UHGV virus genome: UHGV-0349119
Origin: a virus
Length of the DNA: 16,624 bases
Reading direction: 5' to 3' (one strand)
The first letter of the stretch is position 1; every line of letters starts with the position of its first letter. Under the pieces are notes generated by a model. The model saw only the letters and a list, made by a program, of their open reading frames with translations. It did no database searches and had not been told where the DNA came from. Below, piece by piece: positions 5,523 through 7,911 of this stretch. Made by a program: the position numbers and the translations under genes.

Positions 5523-6596
5523 TTATTTCAACTTTAACGCCAAATCTTCAGCTTTTGGATGATAATACCGCATTAGCATTCTTGGATCTTTATGTCCTGT
5601 AATTTTGGTCAGTTCATGCATAGGGAAAATTTCAGCAAGTCGAGAAGTTGCTTCATGTCGAAGGTCATGAAATCTTAAATCTTTAAGGAATGATTCATCA
5701 CATAATGAGTTTGTTTTCTCGTATCGTTCTCTGGCTCGTTTTACAGCTCGGTCAAAAGCTCGGGTAATCGCGTCTGCACGCATATCAAAAACCTTATCAG
5801 CAGCTGGCTTAGAATGTTCCTTGAGACTGGACAGTATCGTGATGGCTTTCGTTGATAAAGGGACATCGCGGGCATTACCATTCTTAGTATCCGGCAGATG
5901 TGCAACTCGCCGATCAAGATCGATAAAGCGCCATCGAAGATCTGCGATTTCGCTACGGCGCATGGCTGTCTCTAACGCCAGAAGAATGATTGCTGGCAAT
6001 ACTAATGAATGTGTTGCGGCGATGATATGTTCGATCTCGTTGGCTATTTCCTTTCCTGACGTAACACCGGTTTTCTCAGAAACTACAGGCAGCGCTTCCA
6101 GGCGTCTGGTCCTGGAGTTCTTGGGTTGAGGTTTGCGAATGGCCTCTACGGGGTTCAGCAGGCTCTCCATGCCCCATTCTTTCCGCGAAACGTTGAATAC
6201 ATGAGAAAGTAAGGCCAAACGCCTTAAAACGGTTGCAGGGGCATAGATTTTCAACCATTCATCTCTCAGCTTGGCGACATCGGCACTCCTGATGCTGGCC
6301 ATATAGTTTTTCGCCAGCTGAGTGCCTTTTAGTATCCGCACCAATGATTGGTCTTGCACTGCCCCTTTTTTGTCGGGAACAATCTCTTTTTCATATCGCG
6401 TTAGGGCTTCATACAATGTCGTAGATTCCGCTTCGCTGCGGCTAAGCCAAACTCCTCTCGCCATTTCTGACTCGATCATTTTGGCCCAAGCTTCTGCTTC
6501 TACTTTGGTGTTAAAGGTTTTGGTTTGAGAGGGAAAACCTCGTTTACGGATTTGAGCTTCCCATTGGTAGTTACCACGTTTGCGTATAGTCGCCAT
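5523..6596 (-). CDS. tyrosine recombinase / phage-type integrase of the AT-rich island
   Basis: C-terminal HDLRHEATSRLAE...LMRYYH matches the catalytic R-H-R-Y box region. Preferred start is the ATG at 6594-6596 (MATIRKRGNYQWEAQ...) with an AGGAA RBS; the ORF track's start at 6626 is a TTG. Confidence 0.85.
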   Translation of the reverse strand: MATIRKRGNYQWEAQIRKRGFPSQTKTFNTKVEAEAWAKMIESEMARGVWLSRSEAESTTLYEALTRYEKEIVPDKKGAVQDQSLVRILKGTQLAKNYMASIRSADVAKLRDEWLKIYAPATVLRRLALLSHVFNVSRKEWGMESLLNPVEAIRKPQPKNSRTRRLEALPVVSEKTGVTSGKEIANEIEHIIAATHSLVLPAIILLALETAMRRSEIADLRWRFIDLDRRVAHLPDTKNGNARDVPLSTKAITILSSLKEHSKPAADKVFDMRADAITRAFDRAVKRARERYEKTNSLCDESFLKDLRFHDLRHEATSRLAEIFPMHELTKITGHKDPRMLMRYYHPKAEDLALKLK

Positions 6597-6684
6597 TTCT
6601 GTCTGATTCCTAACGAACTGTGGCAATATTGTGGCAAAAAATCCATTTAAATTCGATAGGTATTGATTTTACAAGATCAATTTA

Positions 6685-6733
6685 CGCATTCGTAATGCGA
6701 AGGTCGTAGGTTCGACTCCTATTATCGGCACCA
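6685..6733 (+). tRNA. thrW: 3' fragment (anticodon stem to CCA, about 49 nt) of tRNA-Thr(CGU); att core repeat, not an intact gene
   Basis: CGCATTCGTAATGCGAAGGTCGTAGGTTCGACTCCTATTATCGGCACCA carries the anticodon loop with CGT, the T-arm GGTTCGACTCC and the acceptor 3' end plus CCA. The preceding sequence (aagatcaattta) is not a tRNA 5' half. thrW is the att site of P22/SfV-type phages. Confidence 0.75.
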
Positions 6734-6747
6734 TTTAAATCAATAAG

Positions 6748-7911
6748 TTACACATCATTAGTACCTTCCTTATTTTTTGACTGGGACAAATTTGGGACCG
6801 ATGGGTTCAGGATCGAGTCTATTTGCCGTGCGTGTTCGGTAAGGTGATTAGGTGCAAGGTGAGCATATCGACGAACCATTTCGATAGACTCCCACCCTCC
6901 CATTTCCTGTAACACTGACAACGGGACTCCGGCTTGAACCAGCCAACTTGCCCAGGTGTGTCTCAAGTCGTGAAATCTGAAATCATCAATACCAGCCCGT
7001 CTCAGCGCCGCTTTCCAGGCTGTGTTTGCGTCATACCGCATCTTCCTTACTGTTGGCGCTTTCGTTCCGTCTGGTTTGGTACAGCTTTCCTTGTACACAA
7101 ATACCCAACGGTGATGATTCCCGATTTGTTTTTTCAATACGCGACATGCAGTATCATTCAGCGCAACGCCAATTGCGCGGTTTGATTTACTCTCTTCCGG
7201 GTTTATCCATGCCACCCGGCGCTGCATATCTATTTGTTGCCATTCAAGGTTGATGATGTTCGAGCGTCTTAAACCTGTTGCCAGTGCAAATTCAACAACA
7301 GACTTTAATGGCTCCGGACATTCATCAATCAGCCTTTGTGCTTCATGGGGCTCCAGCCAGCGGATCCGTTTATTCTTTGGTTGAGGCACTTTAATAATTG
7401 GTGCCTTATCCAGCATTTTCCATTCACGCTCTGCGGCTCTTAGTAGGGCCTTTATAAATGAAAGATGCGTAGCCTTCGTTGCAACGGACGCTGGTTTTGG
7501 CGTGTATTCTGGAACAGGTTTCCCTTTTTTTCTGCATGCTTCTGCCCTGAGTTTCCAGTTTTCCTCATGACGCCGGTTCGTCATTTTCTGCATTGCTGAA
7601 TAAATTTTTGATTCAGTAATGTCTCTTAGTTGCATTCCTGCGAAATGTTGAAGCCAGAATCCGATCCGGCTTTTGTCATCGTCCAGTGATTTTTTATGTG
7701 CTTTCTCTTCAAGCCACCTGACACACGCTTCCTCGAACGTTATATCAGGTATTTCACCAAGTTTGCTGACCCGCCATGCTTCAGCCTTTAGCTTGTCATG
7801 GAGTTCTGTCGCCTGCCTTTTGTCCTTTGTTCCAAGAGACTGTTTAAATCTTTTACCGTTCGGCAATGTGAAACTGGCGTACCATATTTCACCTCTGCGG
7901 AAGAGTGACAT
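6748..7911 (-). CDS. int: P22-type phage integrase (tyrosine recombinase), 387 aa
   Basis: N-terminus [27 protein letters not shown] and C-terminal [11 protein letters not shown]...MVRRYAHL agree with the P22/SfV Int family as I recall it. GAGGAAA RBS 6 nt before the ATG; C-terminus 14 nt from the thrW core. Confidence 0.9.

Follow-up and report, generated by a model that had tools for sequence, protein, structure and literature searches.

The thrW gene is a frequent integration hotspot in Escherichia coli (PMC7545054), and tandem arrays arising from such integration have already been described (PMC7192596). In the tRNA arrays mapped with Islander and TIGER (Mageeney et al., 2020, PMC7192596), an intact tRNA gene stands at one end, partial cores are regenerated, every unit carries an integrase, and mixed elements occur at the same hotspot. 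SfIV integrates in thrW through a 46-bp attP, and the attP core of SfI, SfIV and SfV is 46 bp long (PMC3851460). Elements of the GIsul2/PIME type are marked by a gene set in which int, alpA, trbJ and trbL occur together with a replicase, and by excision and mobilization that depend on a helper plasmid; guaA is the integration site of those PIMEs that have been characterised and of several subfamilies (bioRxiv 10.64898/2026.01.12.698999).

Here we analyse a 16,624-nt stretch of DNA (UHGV virus genome UHGV-0349119; hereafter the window), the whole of which matches the chromosome of E. coli TUM10008 at 100%. The order in that chromosome is proA, intact thrW, an island that we call E1 (19.6 kb), a core copy within the window, a defective prophage that we call E2 (18.9 kb), another core copy, and the native flank, which is formed by a LysR fragment and paoD (Table 1). 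We consider it very probable (roughly 93%) that the 49-nt block in the window is an att junction common to two independent integrative elements lying in tandem in thrW. The intact proximal tRNA gene, the repeats between and after the elements, an integrase in each of them, their solo occurrences and the empty site were all found, and the locus shares with the arrays of Mageeney et al. (2020) the intact tRNA at one end, the regenerated partial cores, the integrase per unit and the mixture of elements. There is no difference in principle; what is seen here is the two-element case at thrW, with both orders present in E. coli.

Table 1. Features of the thrW array. Positions are those of the window; those marked L001 are positions in the surrounding locus.
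Feature	Position (strand)	Description	Evidence or remark
Intact thrW	L001:1620-1695	tRNA-Thr(CGU)	E1 left arm begins directly after it
E1	L001:1696-21334; window 1..6733	Island, 19,639 bp in total; its right-hand 6.7 kb in the window	Repeats at both ends, E1-only genomes, annotation
TGTGGCAA pair, left arm of E1	L001:1777-1795	Same pair as at 6619..6637	Beside intact thrW
75-aa ORF	4409-4636	Annotated VbhA-family antitoxin	
296-aa ORF (orf296)	4623..5513 (-)	Directly downstream of int1	AT-rich, 30.5% G+C
int1	5523..6596 (-)	357-aa tyrosine integrase of E1, N-terminus towards core	PF00589, 4e-26
P arm of E1	6597..6684 (+)	E1 att-site P arm (attR of E1)	Identical in E1-only genomes (alignment)
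TGTGGCAA pair, right arm of E1	6619..6637 (+)	Two direct 8-bp repeats, TGTGGCAA-nnn-TGTGGCAA, 11-bp period	23-41 nt upstream of int1 ATG
Annotated 'tRNA-Ser'	6622-6733	112 nt	RefSeq/PGAP
Second thrW 3' copy	6685-6733 (+) = L001:21286-21334	49-nt 3' part of thrW, anticodon stem to CCA; attR core of E1	49/49 exact
attL core of E2	6688-6733 (+)	46 bp, inside the 49-nt block	
Start of E2 P' arm	6734..6760 (+)		Equals SfIV attP except one base
int2	6748..7911 (-)	387-aa SfIV/P22-type tyrosine integrase, C-terminus towards core	PF00589, 3e-48
xis of E2	7788..8222 (-); PGAP shorter, 7788-8138	Overlaps int2 start	PF12728 HTH_17, 3e-8; TIGR01764 'excise', 1.7e-5
E2	L001:21335-40287; window 6688..16624	Defective prophage, 18,953 bp in total; its left 9.9 kb in the window	Annotation, third core copy, SfIV P arm
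Third core copy with SfIV P arm	L001:40113-40287		

The sequence-only reading had noticed a 49-nt thrW 3' core lacking the tRNA 5' half, with a P22-type integrase gene to its right whose C-terminal end faces the core and the start of another integrase gene about 90 bp to its left, and it expected further core copies in the full genome. All of this was borne out. No match as good as the 49/49 copy is expected by chance (0), the 22 nt left of the block differ from the tRNA 5' half in the alignment, and the distance to the core is 14 nt for the int2 stop codon and 88 nt for the int1 ATG, from which homologues align at residue 1 of the protein. In the TUM10008 genome, the intact thrW stands 19.6 kb to the left of the window core. 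On the right, at a distance of 18.9 kb, a third copy of 46 nt adjoins the native flank on the paoD side; it ends at L001:40287 and has a single mismatch. The lone G-to-A mismatch in this third copy was considered as a marker of the crossover position and dropped, because the SfIV attP has G there; the A either arose later by mutation or reflects a variant of the phage.

Under the reading of two tandem elements, each would have entered by tyrosine-integrase recombination between an attP containing a copy of the thrW 3' sequence and a chromosomal copy of that sequence, and integration would leave a regenerated core on either side of the insert, so that the block in the window would serve as attR of E1 and attL of E2 at once. 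The attR of E1 would then consist of the E1 P arm and the core, and the attL of E2 of the core and the E2 P' arm with int2 and xis. The attP of Int1 would be situated immediately upstream of its own start codon, with one TGTGGCAA pair per arm as the likely Int1 sites.

E2 derives by deletion from a lambdoid prophage of the SfIV/P22 type and is a defective remnant. At the amino acid level, the identity of Int2 is 100% with the Int of the serotype-converting Shigella phage SfIV and 90% with that of Salmonella phage SPN9CC, which we take to be P22-like. The adjacent xis has a homologue annotated as excisionase in SfIV, and SfIV, which like SfI, SfII and SfV belongs to the P22 Int family, has Int, Xis and the yfdT/S/R-like early genes in common with E2. 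In addition, the two ends of E2 rebuild the SfIV attP, comprising a P arm of about 125 bp (two mismatches), the 46-bp core (one mismatch, at the right-end junction in the third core copy) and the P' arm; compared over the core and both arms, they match the SfIV attP except for three single-base differences. The first 10 nt of the P' arm (TTTAAATCAA) also occur in the native flank downstream of thrW. Unlike SfIV, E2 has no gtr serotype-conversion genes beside attP, and its right end contains in their place a GIY-YIG protein, a Dcm methylase with a restriction enzyme, DUF6650 and AbiTii. Its remaining genes include yfdT/S/R, a truncated KilA-N gene, and antiterminator, DNA-circularization and baseplate genes; three genes are truncated and annotated as pseudogenes, genes for head, terminase or lysis are absent from the annotation, and at 18.9 kb E2 is not a complete, inducible phage genome.

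E1 carries traJ-trbJ-trbL, defence genes and IS1, with int1 at the end distal to the intact thrW. CP4-6, a cryptic prophage of E. coli K-12, is also located at thrW, with the intact tRNA and the integrase gene at opposite ends; its IntF is a larger, different integrase, and its gene content is different. By gene content, E1 resembles GIsul2/PIME (bioRxiv 10.64898/2026.01.12.698999): it has traJ (NikA-like)-trbJ-trbL but lacks a complete type IV secretion system, it encodes a tyrosine integrase, and its accessory region is large and includes anti-phage defence genes. Formal membership of E1 in PIME/GIsul2 was nevertheless ruled out: alpA and repA are absent from the annotation and gave no Pfam match among the unannotated ORFs examined, and the site is thrW and not next to guaA. 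The trb module is interrupted in TUM10008 by IS1, two copies of which surround trbL. We regard E1 as a decayed island that resembles an integrative mobilizable element.

Int1 and Int2 had been called unrelated from the sequence alone. They are indeed different, with 30% identity confined to the catalytic domain, but both are tyrosine recombinases that match PF00589. Int1 contains the stretches RRSE, HDLRH and GH...RYYH, which we interpret as the motifs of the active site (Arg, His-x-x-Arg and His...Tyr, respectively); it is at most 40% identical to phage integrases, and a sequence search against solved structures gave no match. Its orthologues at 92-99% identity were found in two Enterobacter species, two Pantoea genomes and one Enterobacterales MAG, where a partial tRNA-Thr adjoins at the same 88-nt distance and the spacing of int, repeat pair and tRNA fragment is kept. 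The Pantoea tRNA-Thr fragment has four differences, including two that pair with each other in the T stem and are compensatory.

Together with orf296 and the vbhA-like ORF, int1 forms a conserved module that is also present in Enterobacter and Pantoea, and the 296-aa ORF follows int1 in E. coli ETEC6 as well. The product of this ORF looks hydrophobic to the eye, and it had no Pfam, NCBIfam or PADLOC match. A sharp G+C step near 5520, pointed out earlier, is real (30.5% in the ORF vs 45.8% in int1), but it is spread over about 200 bp and, because it falls inside the conserved module, does not mark a boundary between backbone and recent cargo.

The TGTGGCAA pairs in the two E1 arms are likely candidates for arm-type Int1 binding sites, to which Int1 would bind. 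The pair is largely kept in diverged E1 copies and upstream of most Int1 orthologues, and the repeat word differs from TGTGGCAA in distant Int1 homologues (Pseudomonas, a Moraxellaceae MAG). Over the 42.6-kb locus, TGTGGCAA occurs 7 times vs 1.9 expected, and 2 of 100 shuffles reach 7; given this modest enrichment, the case for arm sites rests on paired, positional conservation. A promoter and terminator scan of 6450-6850 returned none, with no sigma-70-like promoter between int1 and the core.

Junctions were counted among 5426 complete E. coli genomes, and each element occurs without the other. The thrW site is empty in 948 genomes (E. coli BL21 is a strain with an empty site), an SfIV-type int lies directly at thrW in 1495 (27%), and the E1 attR lies directly on the native flank in 32; thrW is followed by the E1 left arm in 61 (about 1%). 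E1 stands alone at thrW in ETEC6, where the locus is clean, and in NCTC9038. The E1-E2 tandem order is present in 16 genomes, which span 94-100% identity, and the reverse E2-E1 order in 12 (for example, LR-17-1). The comparison with single-element strains that the sequence-only reading had suggested thus supports its view of the locus, and the element to which the left integrase belongs is indeed one that targets thrW, as is evident from the solo E1 copies, the 61 left junctions and the orthologues beside a tRNA-Thr fragment. Its further proposal, that a second element had entered a tRNA gene already occupied by a prophage, holds as regards tandem occupation, whereas arrival of the prophage first is one of two possible histories, both orders being found (16 vs 12).

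Two quite different explanations would do away with independent integration at this site. RefSeq/PGAP calls a 'tRNA-Ser' across the junction in most of the E1-carrying genomes listed, and the 49-nt block might accordingly be a tRNA pseudogene produced by deletion or IS activity, or a genuine if unusual tRNA gene; we attach almost negligible likelihood to this. ARAGORN found no tRNA in the window, the Rfam tRNA score of 22.3 bits is below the gathering score of 29 with only 6659-6726 aligned, and the predicted fold of the 112-nt stretch has no cloverleaf and an ordinary energy (z = -1.0), which rules the stretch out as a real tRNA gene. In every E1 copy the left edge of the block meets the E1 P arm exactly, and no IS is located at the block boundary. 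Alternatively, since E1 and E2 are contiguous with a common border and the 16 genomes that have the tandem junction span 94-100% identity, they might constitute a single composite element that moves as a whole, in which one of the integrases is cargo or a relic. This is very improbable: each element is found alone at thrW with precise junctions, the opposite order occurs, the internal border is a complete att core with the proper arms of each element, and at the outer sites the arms do not match each other (left P'1, right P2). That the two are always gained, lost or inherited as a single unit is contradicted by the E1-only, E2-type-only and reverse-order genomes.

Within the reading of two independent insertions, the order of arrival is not readable from the structure, because both histories give an identical product. 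That E1 was resident first, and that an SfIV-type phage then entered its distal partial core (attR of E1) instead of the intact thrW, seems to us slightly short of an even chance. A newcomer can use either regenerated core (PMC7192596), and the identity between SfIV-type attP and chromosome runs about 10 nt past the tRNA end (TTTAAATCAA here; SfIV differs at one base), a stretch present at the E1 attR and in the native flank, whereas the sequence after the intact thrW in an E1 carrier is TCTTTTATAA. On the other hand, the end structure is the same under either history, and the heavy decay of E2, with three pseudogenes and most late genes lost, suggests long residence. Moreover, SfIV-type elements are at thrW in 27% of genomes vs about 1% for E1, so that an incoming E1 would often find the site occupied, and reverse-order arrays exist too.

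As to mobility, Pfam detected no excisionase, AlpA-type directionality factor or replicase in E1, which is why E1 may no longer be mobile. A 68-nt exact pattern for the excised circular or free attP1 (P arm, core and P' arm) gave 0 matches in metagenome contigs and 0 in genome contigs, a result that neither supports nor excludes excision of E1. Either element may still be able to excise; both may also be fixed remnants, with IS1 copies in E1 and three pseudogenes in E2.

Taken as a whole, the locus is a clear example of tandem integration, though an ordinary one, at a hotspot that was already known; tRNA tandem arrays are well documented, and current understanding is unchanged. It is unlikely, though conceivable, that E1 stands for a family of mobilizable defence islands that targets thrW across genera and has not been described before. 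The integrase of such islands would have its own attP, with paired 8-bp arm repeats of 11-bp period, directly before its start codon, and the islands would repeatedly share thrW with SfIV/P22-type prophages in either order, with a co-occupation that is perhaps functional. If it were functional, co-occupation might involve, for example, shared excision control, satellite-like use of the phage, or anti-phage protection by the defence cargo of E1. In practical terms, exact borders are now available for two elements annotated only gene by gene in RefSeq, and the 112-nt 'tRNA-Ser' annotated in most of the E1-carrying genomes listed is an att-site artefact. In addition, a thrW-specific integrase with a likely attP (the 49-nt core and paired TGTGGCAA arm repeats) is a candidate site-specific integration tool. 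At the population level, the thrW arrays illustrate that unrelated elements fill one tRNA hotspot in either order.

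The window corresponds to positions 14602-31225 of L001, a fetched locus of the E. coli TUM10008 chromosome (NZ_CP135658.1; window position = L001 position - 14601), with a 100% match over window 5400-8000. In the annotated TUM10008 region, proB-proA is followed by an intact thrW (ARAGORN call Thr-CGU), the integrative-mobilizable-like island E1 (19,639 bp), a thrW 3' fragment (the window core), the SfIV/P22-type prophage E2 (18,953 bp), a third thrW-derived copy (ATTCGTAATGCGAAGGTCaTAGG…GGCACCA, 46 nt, one mismatch), a LysR fragment and paoD. The window core is identical to the thrW 3' end of the same genome at 49/49 positions, with no chance matches expected; ARAGORN found no tRNA gene in the window, and the bases left of the core (…ttacaagatcaattta) differ from the thrW 5' half, as the sequence-only reading had it. 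The stretch TTTAAATCAA directly follows the third copy, and it recurs after the window core. The further core copies, for which that reading had proposed a search, are thus positioned exactly as a tandem array of two elements predicts.

Coordinates of features at the occupied thrW locus of TUM10008
Feature	Position	Strand	Remarks
Intact thrW	L001:1620-1695		after proB-proA
TGTGGCAA pair, left arm of E1	L001:1777-1795		81-99 nt after core next to intact thrW
int1	window 5523-6596	-	357-aa tyrosine integrase; ATG 88 nt from core
TGTGGCAA pair, right arm of E1	window 6619-6637		48-66 nt before core
Window core	window 6685-6733		49 nt
E2 attL	window 6688-6733 onward		SfIV/P22-type integration; attR at other end
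int2	window 6748-7911	-	387-aa tyrosine integrase; stop codon 14 nt from core
Truncated antiterminator	window 10805-11446		
DNA-circularization gene	window 11449-12648		N-terminally truncated
Third thrW-derived copy	ending L001:40287		before LysR fragment and paoD

After the core, E2 carries int2, xis, yfdT/S/R, a truncated KilA-N gene, antiterminator and DNA-circularization genes, then baseplate and tail-fibre genes, pinE, GIY-YIG, Dcm with a restriction enzyme, DUF6650 and AbiTii. The right-hand integrase, its C-terminus toward the core, proved to be of P22 type as proposed: Int2 shares 100% identity with Int of Shigella phage SfIV and 90% with the corresponding protein of SPN9CC, a P22-like Salmonella phage. 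When the region between int and gtrA of SfIV was aligned to the TUM10008 junctions, the SfIV P arm proved to be matched by about 125 bp left of the third core (two mismatches) and the P' arm (int C-terminus) by the sequence right of the window core. The core common to the E2 junctions and SfIV is the 46-bp attP reported for the thrW-integrating phages SfI, SfIV and SfV (PMC3851460). As P arm, core and P' arm are all matched, the ends of E2 are genuine SfIV/P22-type attL and attR. E2 is defective: three of its genes are truncated, and the TUM10008 annotation lists none for head, terminase or lysis functions. In window 9546-12648, the KilA-N fragment and the truncated antiterminator and DNA-circularization genes abut one another, a patchwork which suggests that a large deletion or recombination joined an early lambdoid region to genes for baseplate components, which carry the annotations gp46, gp47 and baseplate V; G+C in E2 climbs from about 45% to 56-59% near 9400-9800.

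On the other side of the core, the start of int1 lies at about the 90 bp first estimated, the ATG being preferred to an upstream TTG at 6626 because alignments with homologues begin at the first residue of the ATG-initiated protein. The description of this integrase as unrelated did not strictly hold: Int1 and Int2 share 30% identity, in the catalytic domain only, and are distant members of one superfamily. Int1 is at most 40% identical to any phage integrase and, among the matches listed, at most 56% identical to plasmid-borne homologues; sequence search found no relatives among solved structures. The G+C step near 5520 was also recovered (orf 4623-5513, 30.5%, vs int1, 45.8%).

From thrW, E1 comprises DUF4297, HNH, AAA ATPase, HigA, traJ, trbJ, IS1, trbL, IS1, a pPIWI-associated-type nuclease, a 466-aa protein, DUF4365, a VbhA-family gene, a 296-aa ORF and int1. 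In E. coli ETEC6, E1 alone (11.4 kb; IS1, MtlR-like, HigA, traJ, trbJ, trbL, VbhA-family, orf296, int1) occupies thrW between proA-thrW and the LysR fragment-paoD, and NCTC9038 has the same right end abutting the native flank. The P arm is identical in ETEC6, NCTC9038 and TUM10008 up to the core, beyond which the first two run into native flank, not int2. Each E1 arm holds a repeat pair with an 11-bp period, almost invariant among diverged left arms in which the immediately adjacent columns vary. Defence-type cargo, missing from the ETEC6 copy, lies at window 549-4148 between trbL and the VbhA-family gene, with IS1 on its left: the pPIWI-associating nuclease (PF18165/PF18166; PADLOC Aga_Nuclease, 1e-58), the 466-aa protein (PADLOC PD-T7-1, 4e-83, and PD-T7-5) and the DUF4365 protein. 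Immediately downstream of int1 is an AT-rich pair (window 4409-5513, about 31% G+C), in which the gene for a hydrophobic-looking 296-aa protein without family match overlaps a 75-aa ORF bearing a VbhA-family antitoxin annotation. Synteny of both with int1 is conserved in Enterobacter and Pantoea. Two Pantoea versions of the 296-aa protein are only 22-33% identical, against 93% for Int1 in these genomes, so this protein has evolved much faster than Int1 or been replaced.

Junction queries of 400-500 nt, real or chimeric, were compared with 5426 complete E. coli genomes, counting matches that spanned 80% or more of the query. Empty thrW was observed in 948 genomes, thrW followed directly by an SfIV-type P' arm and int in 1495, thrW followed by the E1 left arm in 61, E1 attR against native flank in 32, the E1-E2 junction in 16 and the reverse junction (SfIV-type P arm, core, E1 left arm) in 12. 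The reverse order is illustrated by LR-17-1, in which a lambdoid prophage (right-hand 20 kb examined) with a full tail-gene set and the same right-end cargo as E2 precedes an IS5-cut remnant of the E1 left end. A single composite element comprising E1 and E2 is excluded by these counts, the single-element strains and the reverse order, and the same population data tie int1 to thrW rather than to an element targeting another site. Tandem occupation of one att hotspot, as originally proposed and with both single-element forms found in other strains, is thus supported by the three thrW-derived copies, the E2 att sites and the population junctions; integration at an already occupied tRNA stands, and either order of arrival would give the structure seen in TUM10008. 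Beyond the E1 remnant in LR-17-1 (L008:20001-37000), a ttr tetrathionate-reductase cluster and several IS1/IS5 copies indicate remodelling of the hotspot by IS elements.

In most E1-carrying E. coli among the matches listed, RefSeq/PGAP places a 112-nt "tRNA-Ser" at this site (window 6622-6733, L001:21223-21334). A real gene was rejected (no ARAGORN call; Rfam 22.3 bits vs a gathering score of 29; folding z = -1.0), and the most likely origin of the call is a gene-finder artefact, triggered by the anticodon and T arms that the thrW fragment genuinely retains and apparently systematic at the E1 att site. The ETEC6 attR (L003:25469-25700), with a 1-nt deletion in its partial core (TATC-GCACCA), has no such call, which fits dependence on intact thrW-derived arms. 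In E. coli PS_131_S11 (L004:401-473), the thrW beside an E1-type left arm ends in …GGCATCA, not …GGCACCA, a single-base change in its 3' CCA, and is annotated by PGAP as a 73-nt tRNA.

Int1 orthologues (92-99% identity) were found in Enterobacter vonholyi, E. quasiroggenkampii, two Pantoea genomes and an Enterobacterales MAG (residues 1-76 only). These loci have a partial tRNA-Thr fragment at exactly the E. coli distance from the int ATG, with a repeat pair between them (one half-site changed in two loci) and no intact tRNA within 1.5 kb. Four positions distinguish the Pantoea fragments from the E. coli core, and two of them make up a compensatory T-stem pair, as would be expected of a fragment copied from the host's own functional tRNA. 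More distant homologues adjoin a tRNA-Ala-like fragment at the same position (Thiobacillus, 67%), an intact tRNA-Ala (Moraxellaceae MAG, 61%) or a fragment resembling a different tRNA-Thr (Pseudomonas, 59%), and the repeat word differs at the same 11-bp period (Pseudomonas TGTCCCA, Moraxellaceae TGTCCAAA). Mainly from this co-variation, we infer that the repeats are candidate arm-type Int sites. Yersinia homologues (L013, L014, L018, L020, L021; 58-68%) mostly keep the TTGCCACA pair upstream of int, Y. ruckeri having a single full copy; the tRNA-Thr-like fragment is absent beside it, and they probably target a different site. In E. vonholyi, a P22-type int reduced to a frameshifted C-terminal remnant comes after the core beside the Int1 orthologue, so co-occupation recurs outside E. 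coli.

We propose that each element enters through exchange by its tyrosine recombinase inside the thrW 3' sequence, a reaction that regenerates the core at both ends of the element, and that either copy is open to an element arriving later, as reported for other tandem arrays (PMC7192596); thrW is among the most used E. coli tDNA hotspots (PMC7545054). The window core doubles as attR of E1 and attL of E2. Each element still has both of its att sites complete, since 46-49 nt of tRNA sequence remain on either side, and could in principle excise alone, giving the single-element forms observed in other strains. Metagenome and genome contigs yielded no free attP1 (E1 attachment site) junction, nothing promoter-like was detected in the int1-core interval, and E1 showed no directionality factor; E1 may no longer be mobile. 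Its traJ (NikA-like)-trbJ-trbL set without a full secretion system resembles integrative mobilizable elements of the GIsul2/PIME family (bioRxiv 10.64898/2026.01.12.698999); however, characterised PIMEs use guaA, whereas E1 sits in thrW and alpA and repA were not found in it, so formal membership was rejected. Tandem integration is already well known, and E1, which by its gene content would work like an integrative mobilizable element, appears to be undescribed within the literature searched but of an already known kind.
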